The notes beneath the pieces are model-generated. The model did no database searches. It was given only the letters and a program-made list of their open reading frames with translations, and was not told the origin of the DNA. From the NCBI GenBank assembly GCA_965197745.1, contig CBDANS010000006.1:640001-704000 (forward strand): DNA of 64,000 bases. The letters run 5' to 3'. Position numbers and translations under genes: made by a program. Shown here piece after piece: positions 14,270-62,945 of this stretch. Positions within the stretch are counted from its first letter, which is position 1. The number at the start of each line of letters is the position of its first letter. Source of the DNA: Opitutales bacterium. GTDB taxonomy: Bacteria; Verrucomicrobiota; Verrucomicrobiia; Opitutales; PNEW01.

Positions 14270-14403
14270 GACGATTGTGGATGTCGGTCTTCGCCCTCGG
14301 TACGGAATGCGGAATGAGGGATGTCGCGCTTAGCTCTCGGTACGGATTACGGATTGTGTCTAACGGTTATCGAATATAATTCTTATCTTCGTAATTATCC
14401 TCT

Positions 14404-14558
14404 TGTCATTGCGAGGAGCAATGCGACGAAGCTACCGAGCTCAGCGACATCTTCCACTCCAGGAGGATGTCGGTCACGTATTGACAGCCCCCTGGAATAG
14501 AAGATGTCGCGTTTCACGCTCGGTAGCCACAGTCAGCTACGCTTCCTTCGCGATGACA
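14404..14558. repeat. MITE-like palindromic element (TGTCATTGCGAGGAG...CTTCGCGATGACA)
   Basis: Terminal inverted repeats; related copy at 62547-62793 with shared interior. Confidence 0.75.
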
Positions 14559-14663: not shown

Positions 14664-15716
14664 TCAGGCATATTGCACGAGAATCTCGACATGATCCAGC
14701 CGCGGAGTCACGCAAATCGCCGGGTTGAGGCATTCCACGTCGATCTTCAATTCATTCTGGCCGAGCCTCAAGACATCGGGCGGCACGGGATAAGTCATGC
14801 GGGTAAAATTGTCCATGATAAACTGCGCCCGAGTGCTCCGCGCATCTCCCGGCAATAGCCTTCCGTTAACTGAGACCTCATACTCATCCGGCTGCGTGAA
14901 GTTGTGTACCTGCAAGTGCAAGGTGACTCTCGGCGACAGCGCCCGTTGCCGCGCCGCTTCCAGATCATCGGCAATCCCGAACGGGATGACGTGTGACCCA
15001 ACCGACAGCTCCACAGGGAGCACGATCGCGTCGATACCCCGGTAGATCCTGTGGTTCTGTCCCGATTCAGCGCCCTGGTTTGGCGCGCGCGGATGTGAAT
15101 CGAGATCGTAATCGCAGTTGAGAAAGGCAATTGCGCCCGGATCGTGGATCTCGCGCAGCACACGATAATAATCCGGGTGCAGATCGTCGTACCAGACCGT
15201 CCCTGTTCGCTCGGATTGCGGTGGCGTATCTTTTCCGTGTCCGTAGAGCAAGTGCCCGTAGTTGAACAGTTGCAGACCATGCGCTCCCCGGTGATACATT
15301 AACTTGGCCCAGGCGCGGGTCACTTCCGTCCTTCTCCAGTGGTTCGCGCAGGGGAAAATCCAGCAGTCATGCCCTTCGACCAGTTCCAACCACGGACCGA
15401 GGTCCATATCGAATAACATGTATCCGGCGCCAGGCGCAACGGCGTCGACCAACCCCTCATTTACCCACGTGCGCACGTCCATTCCTCGTTGCCAGCACGT
15501 GTCGATATCTGCCACGACACGCACATGCAGGTACATGGGCCGACCACGTTCGCTGCTCACGCGGTCCAGAATCTCGCGCGTCTGCCGTACCATGTCCGTG
15601 ATAAGCGCAGCGTTTTCCGCCTTGCCGAACTCTTTGAAGTAGCGAGGATCGCGGTCGAAATAAAGCGCGACGCCGTCGTTGTCCCATCGGGTGATGAACT
15701 CCTCGATGATGGCCAT
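14664..15716 (-). pseudogene. 5'-truncated TIM-barrel glycoside-hydrolase-like (GHL10/DUF187-like) protein
   Basis: Motifs WDNDGVALYFDRDPRYF and GAHGLQLFN; N-terminus replaced by the IS3 left end at 15717. Confidence 0.6.
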
Positions 15717-17034
15717 TGGTCGTGACCACGAAAACTGGTACACTTGAAAAGTTAGTCTGGGTAACCTAGAAAGGACTCAGACAATGAAAGGCAAAAGATA
15801 CACAACTGAAGAGAAAATACGGATGCTGCGGCAGGCGGACAAAGGGAAAACGATCCTGGAAGCATGCCGCGAGAACAACATTAGCGAACAGACTTTCCAC
15901 CGCTGGAAGCGTGAGTTTGGGATGATTGATGTCGACCAGGCCAAGCGGATGAAGGAACTCTTTGAAGGAGAACGCGCGGTTAAAACGGATGCTGGCGGAC
16001 AAGATGCTGGGGATAGAGATCCTGCAGGAGACCCTCGAAAAAAAACTGTAAGCCCTGGGCACAAGCGGCAAGTGGCAGAGAGACTTGTGGCTCGGGGCCA
16101 GTGTTCGATGCGAGCGGGGTGCCGGTACTTTCGGCTGCACCGTTCCACCTATGCGTATAAGGCGAAGCATCCGGATGCCTGGTTAATGAAACTGAAGGCG
16201 GCAGTAAGGCGGTTATCACGGCAATATGCCAGGTGGGGCTATCCGAAGATCACGAAGCTGTTGAAAGACGAAGGCTGGGAGGTGGGTAAACGTCTCGTGC
16301 AAGGTCTACGACGCGAACTGGGCTTGGCGATCCCCCAACGCAAGCCAAGACGTCGGGGCAGGGGTGTTTCCACCGGGCTGCCGACCAAGGCCGAACATCC
16401 CGGCCATGTTTGGACCTGGGATTTTATCCACGATAAGACGGTCCGCGGTGGCAGTTTAAAAATGTTGACCGTGCTCGATGAGTACACCCGCGAGTGTCGA
16501 GTGATCCATGTTGATCGCCATATCAATGCGGAAACGGTGCGCGGTATCATGCAAAAACTGCTTGCCCGTCATGGGCCGCCACAATATATTCGCAGTGACA
16601 ACGGTTCCGTTCCGAGGAGCGAAGCGACGACATGCGAAGCCATTCATTGAAAAGGAATTGAGAGCCTGGCTAACTGCGATGAAAATCAAAACCCTCTATA
16701 TCGAACCAGGAAGCCCTTGGCAGAACGGATACATCGAATCGTTGCATGCCCGTTTTCGCGAGGAGTGTTTAAACCGTGAACAGCTATGGACTTTGACCGA
16801 AGCCCGCGTGGTGATCGAGGACTGGCGCTGGCTTTACAATAATGTCCGACCCCACCGCAGCCTCGGCAATATCACCCCACGGTGCTTCGCTGAAGACATT
16901 AATACCGAAGGCTTGGGCTCCATTCGGGCTACGCCCTCATTGCGCCCAAGCCTTGACTTCCTCTACCAACTTAACTTCAACATTAACCTCTCCAGACTAA
17001 CTCTCTCGGTGGACCAGTTTACGTAACCCGATCA
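15717..17034 (+). mobile_element. IS3-family element (type A), transposase disrupted
   Basis: Imperfect IRs TGGTCGTGACCACGAAAACTGG / CCAGTTTACGTAACCCGATCA. orfA HTH starts at 15784; A8 frameshift site 16038-16045; DDE motifs WTWDF, SDNG, NGYIES. Extra T near 15961; insert at 16610-16642. Confidence 0.9.
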
Positions 17035-17086
17035 GTACTAATATAGGTTGGGACTGATTTTAAAATAAAGTTAATCAATACTGAAA

Positions 17087-17887
17087 ATGATTATCAAAAG
17101 AAAGAATTTCGTATTCGCATCAATAACTTGGACGATCTCCGGTTTATGTCTTTTTACTAATGTTTTTTGTAATCAATTATCAGGAAGCTATGATAAGAAC
17201 TTTGAACCCTTTTTTAATTCTAAAATTAGTGAAATATCAGATTTGAATAAAAAGGAGGAATTAGAGAATCTTTTCAGTCAAATTGTATCATTACGTGACA
17301 TGCTTCGTGGCCGCGGCATAAATGATCGTGGCACTAGCATAAATAATGAATATGAAGATTTAACAGTTAGGCTTTCAGAAAAATTGAAGCAAGCAGTTAG
17401 GCAAACGGATATCCGAGCTGCATCGACATTTCTTTTTGACACAGTCGAAGATAATTACAACCGCCAGGCAGGACTATCTGCACTTCGTGAATATCAAGAA
17501 TTTAAAATCACTGATATTGAGTTACTCAGTAAGTTATATGTATCTTTAGACTACGAGGACAAAAATCACCACTCGGATAGACGATGGGTTGTACCTTCTA
17601 TTGCAAGAGCCCAACTATCACGTTGGATAGAATACGTGCTTGGTTTAGGAAATGTAGACTCTGCTCCAGCAAAAGAGAAGTATTCTAATCCAAGAAAGTG
17701 GTTAATAAGTAACTTGGAATTAGCGAAACAGTTAGATCAGAATAAAGATTTTTTACCTCTTATTGAGAGTAGCCTAGAGGCTGTACAAATAAACTATGGT
17801 ATTATCAATTCTGTTAAAATAAAAAAAGATAATGTTGATCGGACCCCGTTTACTGTACCAGAGCCCGTGTTAGATCCATCAGGATAG
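17087..17887 (+). pseudogene. Hypothetical exported protein, 3'-truncated by an IS3 end
   Basis: AT-rich ORF with N-terminal hydrophobic segment; last ~17 codons come from IS3 terminal sequence starting at 17836. Confidence 0.55.
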
Positions 17888-18800
17888 TAAGAGTTTTGAT
17901 TTGCTTAGATATGGCTCTCTGGACGTATTCGGCCGGAGGCCGATAGCCCAGAGAACTGTGGAGTCTTTGAGTATTACAATCAAGGCGTCCGGCTTCAGAT
18001 TTTCTATCACATTGGAGTGACCCTAAAAATCGCATCATTTTCAGAGAGAAGTTATGGGGATAGACAGTAAGCTCAATGAAAAGAAAAAGAGAGCCAACAA
18101 ACAGATTATAGCAATACTGGGGCGAGCAGATACAGGAAAGACGGTAGAGGAAGTCTGCTGTGGCAAACAAGGTTAGAGAAAAGATCTTACACTGATTGAA
18201 TCGGGAGTTGATGATGATCGATGGGGACCAGGCCAAGCGGATGATGGATTGGGAAGGGAAAACACACTTGAAGCGAATCCTAACGGATACGATGCCTGGT
18301 GCGGAGATTGTACAAGAGGCGCTGGGCACAAGCAAGAAGCGGTTGAAAAGTTTGTGTCTCGGGATCGCTGTTCGATGCGTGGGGGGGTCAATATTTTCGT
18401 TTTTACCGCTCTGCCTATTCCTATAAGGGGAAGTATCCTTATGCTTGGTTAACAAAGCTGAAAGCAGCGGTGAGATGTTTGTCACGACAATACACTGGAG
18501 ATAAGGCTACATCAAGATCACGAAGCTGTTGCAGGAGGAGGGGGGCGTTAAGGAACCGATGGTGCATGGGCTGCGCTGTCAACTGGGCTTGGCGATTGCG
18601 CTCCATAGACCGAAACATTGATGCAGGGGCACTTCCACTGGCTTGCCAACTGCGACCGAGCATCCCAGCCATCGTCCTTAGTTGGGACTTTATCCACGAC
18701 AAAACGATTCGCGGGGAGCGATCCAAAATAGCTGGCTATCCATAATGAATATACGCGTGAGGTTCTGCTTATCCACGTCGAGCGTCTCATTACCACCATG
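17836..18800. mobile_element. Degenerate IS3 remnants (inverted right end followed by a decayed left half)
   Basis: Minus-strand [12 protein letters not shown] matches 31212..32501; 18013 onward resembles the left end and orfA of the other IS3 copies; WDFIHDKT fragment. Confidence 0.75.
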
Positions 18801-19239
18801 AGCGTGCGATCATGCAAAAGCAGATCGACACAGTCACGGGGCTCCATGCTATTATAGCAGCGACAACTCAACGAGCGATAGCGAGAATAACAAACAGATC
18901 TATTGAAGTATTGTACTTGTTGCAACTTGATCTGACAGACACTGCTTGATCAAATCACAACTCGGTCAGGCAAAAACATTTATAGTTTTCTTCTCAACTT
19001 CTAATCAAATAATAAGTTATCGTCGTGGAGTGCCCCAAAAAAATCCACTCGAAAATTCTTGGCCGATTCCTGGCTGAAGATCAGCATAAAAGTATGATTC
19101 CTGCCCATTCCTGCCAAACATTTTGAGGCAAGGTCAGGAAATTAGAGGAAAATATAAATTATTATTGGGTCGTTATTTAAGTGTAACTAATTTTTAATAA
19201 GTATCTTATAAGGCATTATTGAGTCCCGTTCATAGTCGG

Positions 19240-19535
19240 TTTCATCGAGTCGTTTCACACCGTTTACGCGATGAGTGTTTGAACCGTGAAGTGTTGCTCA
19301 GCGTAGCTGAAGCCCAAGTTGTAATCGAACAATGGCGTCATAATTACAATAATGAACATCCCCACACTCGTTTAGGCTTTAAAAGCCCACTAGAGTTTGT
19401 CAGATTCCTTTCCGATCTTGGCCTCGTCGGGCTAGGCCCTCACTTCGCCAAGATCTCTCATATACATCAATCCTAAAACCATTAACACCCCGATACTCTC
19501 TCACTTAAAAATTGGTACGAATAACGGGGTCCGAC
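19240..19535 (+). mobile_element. IS3 (type B) 3' remnant with right IR
   Basis: RLRDECLNRE...HPHTRLG; ends GGTACGAATAACGGGGTCCGACCA, nearly identical to the end at 23871. Confidence 0.8.
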
Positions 19536-20449
19536 CACTTACCCTCCACAATCATCAAGTCCTCAATGGCGGAGAGAATAACATCCAATTCTCGATGATC
19601 GATTGTATCTAATGGCGATTGAAAATAATTTCGGATCGTCGCACTTCGAATAACGCCGCGACGTCTGAGTACTTCCTTGTAAAGCTGCAACGGGTAGAGA
19701 GATTGCATATTCAGGAGAGGAAGCAAGCGATCGAATAAACGCCGTGCTTTTGCAGCATCACCGCGCTCATAAGTATTCCATATCGCTGCATGCACATCCG
19801 GAATATCGCAAGCCGGCATCGTCCCGCACACTCCCCTGGCCATCTCGTTCATCATGTGCCGGCCGGCCAATCCACCGAATATCCCGTGCAGCTTTTCTTT
19901 ACGCTGAACAAGCTCGAAAAGTTTCGAAACCACATGCGTGCAGAAAAGAGATTCCTCCTTGATATAATGAATATGTTCAATCTCATCGATGAGACGCGCC
20001 ATAAATTCCGGACTCATCGGTGAGCCGACGAAGATGGAGTTTTGAACAATAACGGGAACTTCGGTTGCTGCACCAATGGCTTCAAAATAGCGATATATCC
20101 CCTCACTGTGCAGAGGCTTGATTGGTGGTGACATTGCCATGATCCCATCGGCGCCCAATCCGTTCATCGCCTTCGTCAACTCTGCGGCTGCGTGCGCAGA
20201 CACTCCGCTAGCGACGAGGACTACGGGGATTCGTCCATTCGCCTGTTCACAAACAATGCGGCTGACAAGTAGTCGCTCTTCATCCGAGAGTGCGAAAAAT
20301 TCACTGACATTCGCAGGAACTACCAACCCATGCGCACCCACATCAATGCTAAAATTAACAACCGAGCGAAGAGACTCTTCATCAATACTGCCATCTTCAT
20401 AAAAAGGTGCGACAAGAATAACGTATACACCGCGAAATTTATTTCCCAT
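19505..20449 (-). CDS. Dihydrodipicolinate synthase (DapA/NanA) family aldolase-like protein
   Basis: GAHGLVVPANVSEFFALS, YIKEES (Schiff-base Lys); extreme 3' end overlaps the IS3 IR. Confidence 0.9.
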   Translation of the reverse strand: MGNKFRGVYVILVAPFYEDGSIDEESLRSVVNFSIDVGAHGLVVPANVSEFFALSDEERLLVSRIVCEQANGRIPVVLVASGVSAHAAAELTKAMNGLGADGIMAMSPPIKPLHSEGIYRYFEAIGAATEVPVIVQNSIFVGSPMSPEFMARLIDEIEHIHYIKEESLFCTHVVSKLFELVQRKEKLHGIFGGLAGRHMMNEMARGVCGTMPACDIPDVHAAIWNTYERGDAAKARRLFDRLLPLLNMQSLYPLQLYKEVLRRRGVIRSATIRNYFQSPLDTIDHRELDVILSAIEDLMIVEGKWSDPVIRTNF

Positions 20450-20493
20450 ATTATGGACGAGTCAAAAGATCAAAACGTCAAAAAGAATTAACC

Positions 20494-21534
20494 ATGTACA
20501 CTTTAGAAGAAGATCTCCAAGAGATAATTGAACAAAGCCGCGTTGAGCTTGGGTCTTCTGGGATTATAGCTCGTGTGGAGACTGATGACTTTTTCTGGTG
20601 TGGGACATCCGGAATATTAACTTCCACCGACATTGATAGAGGATTCTACATTTGCAGTCTTAGTAAAACATTCACCGCAATTCTGGTAATGAAGCTTCTT
20701 GAAAATGGTAAACTAAAATTAGATGACCGAATTTCAATTTATCTCAATAAGATTAGCCCGTTTCAGAATATTACTATTAGGCAATTGCTAAATCACTCAC
20801 ATCGTATTCCAGATTATACAAGCTTTGATAACTACGAAGATGAAGTAAATAAATCTCCACATAATCCATGGTCGCGGGAATACATCTCTTCAAGAGCGAA
20901 AAAGATCGGCCTTCTGGAATCTTCGGACGGGAACTGGTCGTACTCAAATACTGGATACATGTATTTATATCAAATAATTGAAATTGTCACTGGGCAAAGT
21001 TATGTCGATGCTATTGACGAACTGGTTATCAAGCCACTCGGGTTTCAATACACGTATGTTGCTACTAAGATCGATAAAGGCAAAATTCTGATTCCAGCCT
21101 ATGACCAATATTTCTCTAAATATGAAGGAGACATACGTTGTCAATATCACCCTGACTGGTGTGCTACGGGTGTACTTGTATCAAATGTTAAGGAAGTATG
21201 TTAACTTTACAGAAAACTGTTAGAGGGTTCCATCCTATCAGAAGAGTCAATGCAAGAAGTATTAGAAGGAGTCGAAACACCTTACTGGGTTGGAGGACGA
21301 GAAGCGTTATACAATGGCAAGTTGAGTTATGGCCTTGGCATAAGAATCTGTAGAAAATTCCCTCTTGGTCCCTTTTTTGGTCATGGAGGAGATTGCCCAG
21401 GCTATTCGATTTGGGCTGGATATATAGATATTTCTGGCGGTAAAAATATAACGAGCTGTGTAGTCTGTAATAGCAGCCTTAAATTTCCACCAGCCGAAGT
21501 TTGGATGAAACTGATCAATCGTGTAGTGGAGTAA
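20494..21534 (+). pseudogene. Serine hydrolase (beta-lactamase/DD-peptidase family) with in-frame stop at 21202-21204
   Basis: SLSK (SxxK), YSN and HGG motifs; the two ORFs are in the same frame. Confidence 0.8.
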
Positions 21535-21643
21535 TAGAGGGAGTGTAAATAGAAATCATATTTTCTTTAACTCTCTCTCAATTATTGAAGCAATACTTTC
21601 AGGTGTTGCTGTAATAGCGACCACCAGTGCATTTTGGGGCTCC

Positions 21644-22158
21644 TCAAGAGTATTGTTTGTTGAGCTCCCAGCCGCCTTTTGTCTTTAGCGTAACCCTGAT
21701 ATTTCCATGTATATCCGTTCGAAAGACTTTGTCTCCCTGTTTCGATCCAGCGCTGCCGGTTTCGTAGAACTCCAAGGCCTTCTCTTCCGGATGACCAAAC
21801 GAGTTGTCTCCGACAGACACGATCGTAACGTCAGGACTGATCTTACGCAGATGATCTAGATAGTAATGTTTCTTGTCTCTTGGATCGTCGAAAAAGGTCA
21901 ACGATCCGTGATGGCTGGCGAGTAGCAGTGACGAACTGAGCGATTCTACATCGTAACTCCTCACTATACTGTACCTCCACGCAACTGCACTTGAATCGCC
22001 GGTGAGCATCATGCTTCCAAGAACTGCACCGTTCGCAGGTCGCCGTTGTTCTACTTTTATAACGATGCTTTGGGCATTCGCATCTGTATCCAAGGCATCA
22101 TTCTTGGAGTTCATTATTCTGAGTCGCGTGTTGCCGAAATCCCAGCGTTTCATTGCCT
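21644..22158 (-). pseudogene. C-terminal fragment of ComEC/Rec2-type MBL-fold hydrolase
   Basis: LTGD, SHHGS, SVGDNSFGHP, RTDIHG; 5' part replaced by an IS3 end at 22159. Confidence 0.75.
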
Positions 22159-22345
22159 CTGGAGTGACCCCAAAAAATCGTATCACTTACCGTGAGAGGT
22201 TATCGGGATAAACAGATAACCTCAATGAAAAGAAAAAGATACAGAACAGATCATAGCAATACTGCGGCAAGCCGATACAGGCAAGACGGGACAGGAAGTC
22301 TGCCGTGGTAACAACCTAAGCGAACCGCCCTTCTATCGGTGTGGT
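22159..22345 (+). mobile_element. IS3 (type B) left-end/orfA fragment
   Basis: Near copy of 22523-22710. Confidence 0.8.
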
Positions 22346-22359
22346 AAAAAGTCAATCAA

Positions 22360-22510
22360 TTAGGGGTTACCTATAAGTGTGCTTACAGGATGGGTAAACA
22401 AATACGGAAGCTACTTAATGATAATATTGATCCTCTCAATAGTGTAGTTGAACTTGATGAAACCTATTAAGGGGCTAAAGAAAGCAACAAACATTAGCAT
22501 AAAAGGACCC
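22360..22510 (+). pseudogene. IS1595 transposase remnant
   Basis: Translates LGVTYKCAYRMGKQIRKLL...VVELDETY*G, paralleling the HTH and EADE region of 10949..11803. Confidence 0.65.
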
Positions 22511-22522
22511 GGTATACACAAG

Positions 22523-23871
22523 TGGTGTGACTCCTAAAAATCGTATCATTTACCGAGAGAGGTTATGGGGATAAACAGATAACCTCAATGAAAAGAAAAC
22601 GATATACAACAGAACAGATCATAGCAATACTCCGGCAGACCGATACGGGCAAGACGGGACAGGAAGTCTGCCGCGGCAACAACCTAAGTGAACAGACCTT
22701 CTATCGCTGGGGCAAAAAGTATGGCAACTTGGAGCTGGCCGATGCTCTAGCGATTTAAAGAACTGGAAAAAGAGAATACCGAGTTGAAGAAGCTGCTCGC
22801 TGATCAAATGCTCAAGAATCAGGTGATGGAGGAAACGCTGTCAAAAAAGTGGTGAGCCCCAAGCAGAAGAAGCTAGCAGTAAAAGGTGCAGTTGAGAAAG
22901 GGCTGTGCTCGTTTTAGAGGGCTTTTGCCTATCTCAGTCTCAGAGTTTTGGTCAACGTTCAGCTACAGGTCTAAGCAGGCCAGCAGGAAAGCTCAGCGGT
23001 TGGCCGAGCGGATTGTAACCCTGTCCTGGGAACATCCCCGCTACGGTTACCGGCGCATCCGTGCCTTGCTGGTGAAGGAAGGTTGGGCGGCGAGCAGGAA
23101 ATTTGTACAGGCAGTGCGACGTTCTTCGGGCTTACAGGTAAAGCCACCGAAAAAGCGTAGACACCGTCAAGGAGTCTCTACAGGGTCGCCTACTAAAGCA
23201 ACCGGTCGCAATCACGTTTGGTCCTGGGACTTTGTCCATGATCGCACAGACAATGGCGGTCCATTAAAGATGATGACTCTGATCGATGAATATACGCGTG
23301 AATGTCTGGATATCCGGGTAGCTCGTCAACTCCCCTCATCGGATGTCCTCTCTGTGCTTAGCGAGGCCATTGAAAAGGAGGGAGCTCCCAGCTATATCCG
23401 CAGTGATAATGGCAGTGTTCCGAGGAGCGAAGCGACGACATGCGAAGCCATTTATCGCTCATCAAGTACAGCGGTGGTTGCGTGAAAAAAACATCAAGGC
23501 GATATATATCGATCCGGGCAGTCCCTGGCAAAACGGTTTCATCGAGTCGTTTCACAACCGCTTACGCGATGTACCGAGGAACGTAGTGACGACATAGCGA
23601 AGCGCTCATGTTTGAACCGTGAAGTGTTGCTCAGCGTGGCTGAAGCGCAAGTGCTAATAGAACAATGGCGTCAGACCTATAACAATGAACATCCCCACAG
23701 TCGATTAGGCTTTCAAAGCCCACAAGAGTTTGTCAGATTCCTTTCAGATCTTGGCCGCGTTCGGGCTACGCCCTCACTGCTCCATGATCTCTCATATACA
23801 TCAATCCTAAAACCATTAACACCCGGTAGTTCTCTCACTTAATAATTGGTACGAATAACGGGGTCCGATCA
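22523..23871 (+). mobile_element. IS3-family element (type B), transposase inactivated
   Basis: TG...CA ends; orfA from 22588 with a frameshift; A6G site near 22843; WSWDF, SDNG, NGFIESF; inserts at 23418-23450 and 23572-23608. Confidence 0.9.
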
Positions 23872-23999
23872 CTCTCACTATTCACTTCTAATTATCGTCC
23901 TTTTCCTGAACTTTCTTCACCGACATCAGCCACAGATGGTTGTTGACAAGATTTGGGGATCGGTAACGAACGCCATCCAGGAAATGATTCGGGCGTCGG

Positions 24000-25097
24000 C
24001 TACAGATCCAATCCGATACCAAATATGAACTGGAAATCGTTTTCCTCCGGTTCCTTACCGGTGGCGTCGGGAATAGGATTCGCTGTCCAGTCCCATACAA
24101 AGGAAACATTAAGGTTGAGCCTGTTTGTAATCTCGAACTCGATGCTTGTTATGGAATGTGAAATAACTCCCCCGGAAGCTTCGTCGGCATAGCGTAACTC
24201 ATAGATTCCGTTCAGATCCAGCCATTCTGTGATCTCCGTTACGAAATGGGATCCGACTGAGAACGAGAGCGCCTCATCGCTTGCCTGTTCTCCGACCTGC
24301 ACGGTGGAGAACCGTGTCAATTGATAACTGATTTCTGTCGTGGTATCCCATTCCGTTTTTGAGTTTCTCTTAATGTTGTAGCCGACCCCTGCGCCAAGAG
24401 AATAGCGGTTATCTATGTTTTGAAAGGGATTCGCGAAAGACTCAATGGCGAAGGGGCGAACGAAAAATTTCTTTGTAAAAGAAATATCGAAATATGAATT
24501 AGTGCGATGACTATTGGCCGTTTCTATTCCCTCGGTTTTACTGAAAGTTCCGATGTAATCGAAGTAGAAGCGGTTATTCGCGGTTCGATGCTGGATCGTC
24601 ACCAAGGTATTCCAGTCGGCTTGTTCGGTGTTTCCGCTCCCAATGTTCGCGCCGACGGTGGCTTTTGCGGACCACAAGTCCAGTTTCTTGGGGCTCCCAG
24701 CAGCGATTGAAAAAACGTCTGAGCGATTTATTACTAGGTCTTTCTCCGACTCCGTAACCACGAGTTCATCTCCTTTCATAAAGAGTTTGCCAGTTGCAGT
24801 TTGTCGATCTCCATAACGGACCATTTGCGATCGTGCCGAGTGCATCTGCGCTACATCGTCCCAATCGATGTCGAGGAGGCCGAGTTTGTCGCTGTCAAAC
24901 TCGACGGTGTAATCATACATCTCTTTAATTTCACCCTTTAGCCACTCTCCCGAGGTCAACTGGATCCAGTCGAACTCATCGGGTGGTGGTGGTAGTGGAC
25001 TCCATGCGGCGTAGTTCCCCATTGGAACGCCGAGAGAAAGGAGAGAAATGGAACTGACGAGTCGAATAAGGTACATTTTCTGTCCGAGACTTCTCAT
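24000..25097 (-). CDS. DUF481-like outer-membrane beta-barrel protein
   Basis: Signal peptide; DWIQLTSGEWLKG N-domain; GNT motif; alternating beta strands. Confidence 0.75.
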   Translation of the reverse strand: MRSLGQKMYLIRLVSSISLLSLGVPMGNYAAWSPLPPPPDEFDWIQLTSGEWLKGEIKEMYDYTVEFDSDKLGLLDIDWDDVAQMHSARSQMVRYGDRQTATGKLFMKGDELVVTESEKDLVINRSDVFSIAAGSPKKLDLWSAKATVGANIGSGNTEQADWNTLVTIQHRTANNRFYFDYIGTFSKTEGIETANSHRTNSYFDISFTKKFFVRPFAIESFANPFQNIDNRYSLGAGVGYNIKRNSKTEWDTTTEISYQLTRFSTVQVGEQASDEALSFSVGSHFVTEITEWLDLNGIYELRYADEASGGVISHSITSIEFEITNRLNLNVSFVWDWTANPIPDATGKEPEENDFQFIFGIGLDL

Positions 25098-25144: not shown

Positions 25145-25730
25145 TGACCTGCACCCTTATGCTGTACCAGAGTCAGTTTTAAATCCAGCAGGGTGGCAAG
25201 GGTTTTGATTTGCTTAGATATGGCGCTCTGGGCGTATTCGGCCGAAGGCCGATAGCCCAAAGAACAGTGTCGTCTTTGAATATTATAATCAAACCTCCAG
25301 GATTCAAGTTACTCTTTCACTTCAGCTAGCGTACAAAATATCTTGGGGTTAAGAAGTTCATCTTGTAAGCGTCCATTGAAGCTCTCAATATAACCATTTT
25401 CTACGGGTCTGCCTGGCTGGATGAAATACAGATGGATACCTTGGGTGTAAGCCCACTCATCCAATACTTTGCCGGCAAACTCGGGGTCATTATCGACGGT
25501 AATGGTTTGAGCAAGACCGATTCCTTCAGCGGCTTTCGCCAGTGCAACGGTAACTTTACGTCCACCGATGGAGGTATCGGCCAGAAGCAGTGAGCAAGCT
25601 CGGGTATCCTGACCGACAACGTTGAAAATGCGCAAAGGGGTGGCCGTTAGCCAACTGACCTGCTCCCGATTACTGTACCAGAGCCAGTGTTAGATCCGGC
25701 AGAGTGGTAAGGTTTTTGATTTGCTTATCT
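25145..25730 (-). mobile_element. IS3 (type C) remnants with two right ends
   Basis: TGACCTGC... IRs at 25145 and ~25656; TITVDNDPEF...NGYIESFNG similar to 31603..32487. Confidence 0.8.
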
Positions 25731-25744
25731 TAGCCTCAGTGGGA

Positions 25745-26273
25745 CAAGGTTCAGCTACCGGCCCAAGCAGGTCAGTAGGAAAGCTCAGCGATTGGCCGAA
25801 CGGATAGTGACGTTGTCCTGGGAACATCACCGCTACGGTTAGCGGCGCATCCGTGCCTTACTGGTAAAAGAGGGCTGGACAACAAGCAGGAAGTTTGTCC
25901 AGGCAGTACGACGTGCAGAGGGCTTACAGGTAAAGCGAACGAAAAAGCGCAGACCCCGTCAAGGGGTCTCAACATGGCTCCCCACTAAAGCAAAAGGACA
26001 CAATCACGTTTGGTCTTGGGACTTTGTCCATGATCGCACAGACAATGGCGGTCCATTAAAGATGATGACTCTGATCGATGAATATACGCGTAAATGTTTA
26101 AGCCACCGGGTAGATAGACAGCTCACCTCAACCGATGTCCTCTCGCTACTCAGCGAAACCACCGATGAAGAGGGAGTTCCAAGCTATATCCGCAGTGATA
26201 ATGGCAGTGAGTTTATCGCTAATCAAGTAGAGCGGTGGTTGCCCGAAAAAGACATCAAGGCGATCTATATCGA
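25745..26273 (+). mobile_element. IS3 (type B) internal fragment
   Basis: Similar to 22955-23510, with an intact SDNGSEFIA. Confidence 0.8.
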
Positions 26274-26372
26274 CGTGTTTAAGGACAGCCTCCAATATGG
26301 CGCCCGGTTCCCTGTGTTCCAGCCCTATCACAACGGGGTTTTATCGCAGTTGCACAGGACCAGGAACGCCCT

Positions 26373-62546: not shown

Positions 62547-62793
62547 TATTGTCATTGCGAGGAGTTAAGCGACGAAGCAATCCAGGGGAATGTCCGTTAC
62601 GTAATCACAGTCCCTGGACGTAATGTTTCAATCAGAAGTTCGATTGCCGTTCTAAAGTATATATAGAGCTACTCATGTTTCTTAGCGGTGATTTGTATCC
62701 GTAACCACAATGACTATTCGCCTGGATTGGAAGATGTCGGACTTCGTCCTCGGTAGCCGCGGTCGGCTGGTAGCCTTCCTCGCAATGACAATA
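62547..62793. repeat. MITE-like palindromic element
   Basis: 17-bp TIR TATTGTCATTGCGAGGA / TCCTCGCAATGACAATA; related to 14404-14558. Confidence 0.8.
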
Positions 62794-62945
62794 GGGGCGA
62801 ATACAACAATTTGTACTTATCTTCATTCTAAACCGGAACAACCCCGTTAAATAGTTTGATCCTTACAATCCACATGAATAAGGTGAAGTAAAAGTCTAAG
62901 CAGTTTCGCATACTGCTCCTATTAAAATCCAAAACTATAAATACA

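Follow-up and report, generated by a model that had tools for sequence, protein, structure and literature searches.

The stretch of DNA analysed here (64,000 nt, C6:640001-704000 of the 4.45-Mb, seven-contig Opitutales genome G000; hereafter the window) carries two insertion sequences (IS) of the IS3 family, one of lineage A and the other of lineage B, in which the transposase gene orfB is interrupted at the same codon by the same 33-mer, TTCCGAGGAGCGAAGCGACGACATGCGAAGCCA (insert 1; Table 1). The two copies are identical letter for letter, both on the + strand, and none of 100 shuffles yielded a match. In both elements the insert lies within the Glu codon that follows SDNGS, a motif in which we take the D of SDNG to be the second catalytic Asp of the transposase. 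At this place, sister copies of the same genome that are empty have TCC G-AG-TTT and AGT G-AG-TTC, so that the 33 nt of insert 1 stand for the AG of GAG, a net gain of 31 nt, and downstream of the insert orfB continues in the +1 frame in both window elements. The flanking codons are GGT TCC in the lineage A element and GGC AGT in the lineage B element, and a truncated B-like fragment further along the window (tblastn match C6:665726-666355) is empty. The identity of the two copies, the replacement of two Glu-codon bases with a consequent frameshift, the different codons around the insert and the intact GAG TTT of the sister fragment had all been pointed out in the original prediction, which was made from the letters of this DNA without database searches, and each of these points held.

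In the lineage A element, the frame upstream of the break runs to YIRSDNGSVPRSEATTCEAIH and a stop; its terminal part consists of YIRSDNGS followed by the insert-coded VPRSEATTCEAIH. The broken frame (P0001) scores 141.3 bits against the NF033516 model (transpos_IS3), below the cut-off of 160, because it is cut at the insert, and an empty A1-type orfB (P0005) reaches 213.7 bits and contains rve, rve_3 and HTH_21. In the lineage B element, a frame at 22886-23485 matches rve and HTH_21 of Pfam. The carriers qualify as members of the IS3 family by an NF033516 score over the cut-off in the empty form, an rve DDE core, the layout of orfA with orfB in the -1 frame after a slippery run, TG...CA ends and, in part of the copies, a 4-bp target duplication; the ends of the A and B elements are TGG...TCA.

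Table 1. Features of the window, numbered from its first letter
Feature	Position	Strand	Basis or remark
Ssn-type hairpin repeat (GTCATTGCGAGGAGC..GCGACGAAGC) with nested TACCGAG mini insert	14405..14530	+	
IS3-family element, lineage A (sublineage A1), 1318 bp, ends TGG...TCA	15717..17034	+	blastn, 40 full-length copies
Open frame of element A ahead of the break	15784..16650	+	Translation; Pfam HTH_Tnp_1, HTH_21, first three quarters of the rve core
Insert 1 (TTCCGAGG...GAAGCCA, 33 nt) in place of AG of GAG, SDNGS-E-F codon	16610..16642	+	
Remainder of element A orfB (FIEKELRAW...), +1 frame	16643..17026	+	Translation; Pfam rve_3, E 3.9e-26
IS3-family element, lineage B (low-copy sublineage B2), 1349 bp	22523..23871	+	blastn copies
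Insert 1, second identical copy, same codon, AGT G-insert-TTT	23418..23450	+	
Insert 2 (TACCGAGGAACGTAGTGACGACATAGCGAAGCGCTCA, 37 nt), replacing AG of GAG in LRD-E-CLNRE, net +35	23572..23608	+	In element B
Truncated B-like IS fragment, both sites empty	25700..26275	+	GAT GAA TAT near 26078-26086; AGT GAG TTT at 26206-26214

Insert subtypes and their IS3 carriers

The blastn search with both window elements yielded 40 A-like and 34 B-like full-length copies in the genome. The 28-nt core of insert 1 has 73 genome matches with at most 3 mismatches (52 of them exact) on five contigs, and all 73 are located between SDNGS and F(I/N) of IS3-family elements. At this position (site 1), insert 1 occupies 35 of the 40 A and 32 of the 34 B copies; the seven empty ones read G-AG-TTY in six cases and TCC-TAG-TTC in one. 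Insert 2 (site 2, LRD-E-CLN) was found in 8/34 B copies. Insert 3 (site 3, LID-E-YTRE), common in the abundant B1 sublineage, replaces the AA of GAA by 44 nt, with a net change of +42 and an in-frame TGA (28/34 B, 2/40 A), and insert 4 (site 4, GSPW-Q-NG) places 44 nt in the stead of AA or AG, likewise net +42, is read in frame as LPSEATPQRAIARIT and only lengthens the protein (10/34 B, 1/40 A). The fifth subtype, of 25 nt, lies in reverse orientation directly after the A AAA AAA slippery run (frameshift site) of 6/40 A copies, where AG (CT on the coding strand) has been replaced.

All inserts at IS3 sites begin with TWCCGAG, finish with CA and are preceded by G or C and followed by T or A; the junctions always conform to S-AR-W, with loss of the AA or AG dinucleotide. 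There is one subtype per site and each subtype was seen at its own site only, which for insert 2 holds in the distant IS3 lineages C and D as well, and four of the five sites fall within the most conserved motifs of orfB. Variants of insert 1 follow the sublineages of the carriers (e.g., GCAAAGCC in A2). A deep A lineage represented by a single copy (C7:1062032-1060604) holds four inserts, which cannot be accounted for by riding on the amplification of the carrier. Free of inserts of all subtypes are 4/40 A and 0/34 B copies. With inserts 1 and 2 shifting the frame and insert 3 adding an in-frame TGA, most IS copies appear, to judge from their reading frames, unable to make their own transposase. 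Fixed, motif-level sites inside one transposase family, with ~150 copies in this one genome, are out of the ordinary and experimentally tractable.

A 4-bp target duplication flanks 14 of the 71 A and B copies that have both ends and is missing from the others, a low share that suggests much IS-mediated rearrangement; filled copies with intact 4-bp duplications at distinct loci number 7/39 in A and 7/32 in B. The filled copies include large near-identical clades (17 copies in A1, 9 in B1a and 14 in B1b). In B1, orfA ends with LSKKW and a stop across A AAA AAG, and orfB follows in the -1 frame. The A copies are polymorphic at window positions 15961-15963, where some have TTT, as does the window copy, and others GA, one base shorter. 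The GA allele results in a canonical orfA, with a helix-turn-helix (HTH) plus leucine-zipper region and the ending LEKKL, and the A AAA AAA frameshift site comes after it; under the TTT allele, present in many A copies, the HTH shares a frame with orfB, and an empty copy is a single 410-residue frame bypassing the zipper region. Intact empty A2 copies with the complete 410-residue frame exist in the genome, and two empty A2 copies (C7:408026-406740 and C7:1352654-1353939) have the canonical orfA with the leucine-zipper region and the frameshift site. Tyrosine-integrase genes directly adjoin A copies at C4:136043-136489, C7:1352039-1352509, C7:1906203-1906739 and C7:1065131-1065586.

Lineages A and B are ~1 substitution per site apart, and the divergence between them amounts to 36.7 % over the 33 nt to the left of insert 1 and 52.5 % over the 33 nt to the right, compared with 2.05 % within the insert. 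Lineage-specific letters reach the junction itself (GGTTCCG versus GGCAGTG), so the insert would have moved alone. The A2 clade comprises 9 filled and 4 empty copies joined by branch lengths of 0-0.002, and in it all four combinations of filled or empty with the TTT/GA marker ~650 nt away are represented; in virtually identical copies, this implies that the insert state changed more than once and very recently. In one copy (C7:1674708-1673277), which is otherwise B-type, the ~60-100 nt that immediately follow insert 1 are 98 % A-like and 58 % B-like. In the related genome G001, 3 of 11 loci (L042, L044 and L049) are chimeras, A upstream and B downstream, joined at the insert; across the G001 loci, flank identity is 90-99 %, and 10 of the 11 have the identical insert. 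At the DNA level, the inserts are alleles at nucleotide-precise sites, most of which break the transposase frame; filled and empty states coexist, and recombination has taken place beside them.

The same inserts recur letter for letter in G001 and G002, which represent two species in a second genus of the family, at different frequencies: the core matches 14 and 24 times, insert 3 occurs 3 and 46 times, and insert 4, 5 and 12 times, respectively. A third, incomplete genome has none of the inserts, and the core sits in non-IS contexts in two further families of the order. The exact 30-mer was found, among species-representative genomes, in the relative OY829953.1 only, and 0 times in JGI metagenome contigs. 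Insert 1 is also present in public proteins from ENA and NCBI, and uninterrupted A1-type orfB is encoded in other public assemblies (P0005, a cluster of 15, and P0006, a cluster of 51). The proposal that identical inserts in diverged hosts reflect recent site-specific insertion or conversion is supported by the near-identity of the insert between divergent flanks, the coexistence of filled and empty A2 copies, the conversion patch and the chimeras. That proposal would have been undermined by an artefact or by insertion at unrelated random sites; instead, 73 of 73 matches are at one site, and the insert is present in two other species.

A family of nested hairpin repeats

The IS3 inserts are part of a wider set of short repeats. 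A loose regular expression for the family (T[TA]CCGAG, 3-30 nt, [CT]GACA[CT]) has 261 matches in the genome, compared with 9 for the reversed pattern as a control. The IS3 sites account for 121 matches (72 at site 1, 31 at site 3, 11 at site 2 and 7 at site 4), 32 are nested in another, Ssn-type repeat, and 108 are elsewhere, some of the latter being chance matches. A terminal stem of at least 3 bp is present in 35 of 103 distinct middles, compared with 3.2 (maximum 8) in 200 shuffles. Covariation is seen in the first mini hairpin of inserts at IS3 sites (GCGAAGC, ACGTAGT, ACGAAGT); on this basis, they are putative mini hairpins of the GCGAAGC type, with sheared G-A pairs. The family has the form TWCCGAG, small hairpin, GACGACAY or CGACAT and a short tail ending in CA, with a length of 25-45 nt and a tendency to nest. 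An Rfam scan of window positions 15600-24100 with E values up to 1 yielded no family. A miniature inverted-repeat transposable element or other non-autonomous DDE transposon was rejected as a description of the inserts: there is no terminal inverted repeat, and two target bases are lost, not duplicated.

The 21-nt core is unchanged in at least 122 metagenome stretches, in many contexts including tRNA T-loops (e.g., L069, L086 and L126). At L064, L067, L072 and ~25 more metagenome loci from many samples, the core caps a longer hairpin that is itself conserved (GGCGCGATTCTTG-core-CAAGAATCGTGAC...GTTGAAGCAGTTGTTAG). Another metagenome locus, L131, at the start of a contig, contains an insert-1-like element with an extra nested hairpin between TATG and TTTGG, in a frame unrelated to IS3, and the site is again a would-be Glu-Phe codon pair.

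The repeat in which family members are nested has ~85 genome copies of the form GTCATTGCGAGGAGC-loop-GCGACGAAGCAATCCAGG and matches in type the Ssn-related motifs (NTS/SRM), which go with GIY-YIG SsnA single-strand nucleases and of which the SRM are defined by an oriented GTCWY 5' tag and an AATCC 3' tag (Chenal et al. 2025, PMC11893778). The local layout is GTCATTG-CGAGGAGC-loop-GCGACGA-AGCAATCCAGG. In the window, clusters of such repeats (GTCATTGCGAGGAG...) are located at 14281-14530 and 62551-62800, with nested TACCGAG mini inserts in both orientations. The TACCGAG element nested in Ssn-type repeats likewise replaces AA, in GAAGC-AA-TCCAGG. The repeat listed in Table 1 and insert 1 have a common hairpin core, CGAGGAGC.AAGCGACGA, and the same mini inserts are nested in the repeats. 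Four of the eight small GIY-YIG matches in the genome (C7:483646-483864, C7:1542004-1542222, C7:1545659-1545877 and C6:787949-788140) are flanked on both sides by GTCATTGCGAGG repeats and thus show the SRM-gene-SRM layout; these genes encode ~100 aa with a YYVYIL...GVT motif, two carry stops, and three of their upstream SRMs hold a nested TACCGAG element. None of the eight small GIY-YIG genes is flanked by IS3-type inserts. We tested insert 1 itself against the SRM definition of the published search string, in which the oriented tags HGTCWY on the 5' side and RNCYNB on the 3' side enclose a hairpin (PMC11893778), and rejected it as an SRM/NTS: it is flanked by GTTC... and ...CATGCGAAGCCA, and, unlike SRMs, the inserts have neither the GTCWY (GTCAT) 5' tag nor the AATCC 3' tag. 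That study reports that NTS are rarely within genes (2 %) and offers no insertion mechanism (PMC11893778).

Probable copying of the inserts and alternative explanations

The 33-mer is one of the subtypes of the nested hairpin-repeat family. We consider it probable, although by no means certain, that the inserts are DNA-level alleles that break the transposase and are copied between IS copies by a homing-like process. The filled allele would be copied precisely into an empty IS copy, including across diverged lineages, by homology-guided repair or by template switching; starting precisely at the site, this would leave the recipient flanks in place, and the allele would then multiply together with its carrier. 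A selfish-DNA reading of this kind suffices for the fixed-site inserts, ~150 copies of which are present in one genome.

Several points weigh against such copying. The evidence for the transfer of a filled allele into an empty copy is indirect, namely the distribution of the alleles. The letters of the recipient are kept to 1 nt on the left, for which ordinary gene conversion is unfit, so that an exact break or a precise insertion must be assumed. Among the Y1, GIY-YIG and tyrosine integrase genes of the genome, no nuclease or recombinase has a link with the inserts. What flanks the small GIY-YIG (Ssn-like) genes is the other type of repeat, and the Y1 transposase (IS200/RAYT-type) was rejected as a mobiliser, being a single gene with no repeats within 2 kb. 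The B lineage has no insert-free copy to account for the movement of the 23 near-identical B1 copies. Another IS3 lineage (11 copies) has the local target CCN G-AG-TTT and is invaded in 0/11 cases; this agrees with a requirement for a related donor and shows that the local target by itself does not suffice. Given that the 21-nt core is so widespread, its identity is by itself a weaker proof of recency than it appears. Finally, nearest-neighbour DNA folding of both inserts with their flanks, on both strands, was no better than that of shuffles (z of +1.36, +2.28, -0.69 and -1.07). The tyrosine integrases, several of which adjoin A copies, were set aside as well, there being no direct-repeat core on either side of the inserts.

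A dedicated drive or defence system is conceivable but improbable. A trans-encoded nuclease, possibly a small GIY-YIG Ssn-like enzyme, would cut empty motif sites and repair would copy the insert; this could be true homing of a parasite of a parasite or a host system silencing IS3 elements. At about the same low level of probability, the process might be nuclease-driven homing of 33-45-nt hairpins that recognises the conserved catalytic-motif codons of IS3 transposase genes (and perhaps also tRNA T-loop-like sites) and knocks them out copy by copy, with a small GIY-YIG (Ssn-like) enzyme as the candidate cutter. Such a system would agree with the placement of four of the five IS sites in the most conserved orfB motifs, the precise junctions with the recipient flanks kept, the filled state being near fixation (67/74 at site 1, and no B copy without an insert), the four inserts in a rare single-copy lineage and the presence of eight small GIY-YIG matches in the genome; the lost AR dinucleotide would suit the trimming of a 2-nt overhang. 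However, no nuclease is linked to the inserts, four different targets would have to be recognised that have only S-AR-W in common, the family also occurs in non-IS contexts, and the 11-copy IS3 lineage is untouched. Moreover, the published Ssn enzymes cut single-stranded DNA beside their own hairpin and not empty sites (PMC11893778). The suggestion in the original prediction of targeted transposase inactivation can be retained in part: inactivation fits as an effect, given the broken frame, whereas targeting as a defence is not borne out, given that the family also occurs outside IS elements.

A purely passive history appears unlikely. Each insert would have entered once, the IS would have been amplified with transposase supplied in trans, and rare ordinary recombination would have carried the insert between lineages. 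The large near-identical filled clades, the filled copies with intact target duplications at distinct loci and the insert variants that follow sublineages are all as expected under this scenario, and the intact A2 copies could provide the enzyme. It does not readily explain identical inserts without a co-converted flank in lineages that are 25-100 % diverged, the four inserts of the single-copy lineage or the four-gamete pattern within A2; in addition, there is no intact B copy, and IS3 transposases act mostly in cis.

We regard as very improbable that the inserts are a recoding or regulatory device of the IS itself, in which the ribosome would shift by +1 or hop (from CCG before the rare AGG to CCA before TTC) or the truncated product would be a selected inhibitor. 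Insert 1 is open in both frames (VPRSEATTCEA and FRGAKRRHAKP) and contains the CCG-AGG and CCA-TTC pair, 28 nt apart, and filled copies are numerous and young. One public protein from ENA (P0012) has a variant of insert 1 that is one base shorter and read in frame, SDNGS-VPRAKRRLAKP-FIESELRAW, which would favour such a device; this copy is otherwise decayed and also carries insert 4. Against recoding, a matching landing codon is missing from inserts 2 and 3, and insert 3 contains an in-frame TGA; B1 copies would require two events, a slippery site is lacking, the zero-frame stop downstream of the insert is not conserved between A and B, and perfectly intact empty copies of the same sublineage exist. 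A bypass or programmed frameshift element was rejected on these grounds, the CCG and CCA match being confined to insert 1; with net lengths of +31, +35, +42 with TGA and +42 open, no single recoding rule fits. A full-text literature search for the core sequence found no paper, and among the papers listed by a search on translational bypassing in IS3 transposases none addresses these inserts.

Removal at the RNA level is likewise not supported. In the metatranscriptome run X15, which consists of contigs from another sample and, like X16, covers the stretch in part, both window sites of insert 1 are empty with AG (depths 22 and 16.4), the contigs omitting exactly 16610-16642 with AG in place. 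A single excision from the filled sequence cannot give G-AG-T, and the empty form in X15 is accounted for by uninterrupted DNA copies in other assemblies on public record. Contigs of run X1 omit 23572-23608 with AG between, which corresponds to the common B copies without insert 2. In runs X1 and X2, the kind of which is not recorded, no skip joint was found at insert 1 in the contigs, which lose rare forms. The removable or recoded switch envisaged in the original prediction thus finds no support: frames differ among the sister inserts, and no single deletion yields the GAG form. An assembly or polishing artefact arising from cross-mapped reads can be discounted almost entirely, given the 73 copies on five contigs, the presence of the insert in assemblies of two other species and in public ENA and NCBI proteins, and contigs of independent runs that extend into the insert (X1 and X2 pieces ending at 16638).

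In kind, the inserts seem closest to the very small nested repeats of cyanobacteria and to the Ssn-type hairpin repeats. The small dispersed repeats (SDR) reportedly found in Nostoc and other cyanobacteria are also tens of bases long (under ~50 nt), non-coding, endowed with hairpin potential and nested in other repeated or mobile elements, lack terminal inverted repeats and target duplications, and have a mobility deduced from pairs of filled and empty sites; by this definition of SDR the inserts would qualify, which is a likeness in kind with no common sequence. They differ in phylum and sequence, in having one fixed transposase-gene site per subtype, in the lost dinucleotide and in being mostly within IS3 orfB. 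In their manner of spread, the inserts appear to behave like homing without an intron: as with group I introns and inteins, the empty allele seems to receive an exact copy of a heterology at a conserved motif, the filled state is near fixation, and recombination and co-conversion occur beside the insert, but here there is no splicing and no encoded endonuclease, the length is 33-45 nt only and the host gene is destroyed. The 'byps' elements of Magnusiomyces mitochondria and phage T4 gene 60 are said to represent programmed translational bypassing, and they resemble our inserts in being short (27-55 nt), within coding sequence, in some cases out of frame, multi-copy and apparently mobile; the matched take-off and landing codons are, however, absent from inserts 2 and 3. 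Rickettsia palindromic elements (RPE) are reportedly selfish palindromic repeats inside open reading frames of a host-associated bacterium as well, but they measure 100-150 bp, are in frame and are tolerated across many proteins, whereas here the sites are fixed, one gene family is involved and the frame is mostly broken.

Very small mobile repeats are poorly understood, and we know of none for which the mechanism has been established. The present genome constitutes an unusually clean natural experiment, with five subtypes, each at one nucleotide-precise site of a multi-copy gene. Backgrounds that are identical carry filled alleles in some cases and empty ones in others, and three species have the same alleles. 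Should nuclease-driven copying prove true, it would be a new way of disabling transposons from within and would provide a possible role for the widespread Ssn-type hairpin repeats; the inserts would then rank as the smallest homing parasite known for a transposon, or else as a means by which the host defends itself and silences insertion sequences. If instead the history was passive, it shows how an insert of 33 bases can come to prevail in entire IS families of a host-associated bacterium. In both cases, gene callers will list such IS copies as split transposase fragments.

Two minor observations concern similarity to tRNA. The sequence ATCGAATCG of element A (I-E-S codons, window ~16734-16742) resembles a tRNA T-loop. 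In addition, repeated copies of the tRNA 3' end are present downstream of tRNA-Asn and tRNA-Gln (C6:355530-355700 and C5:236540-236610), and in the T-arm-like part of these copies a TTCCGAGGAGC-loop-GCGACGACAC-AAGCGAAGCG module closely resembles inserts 1 and 3.

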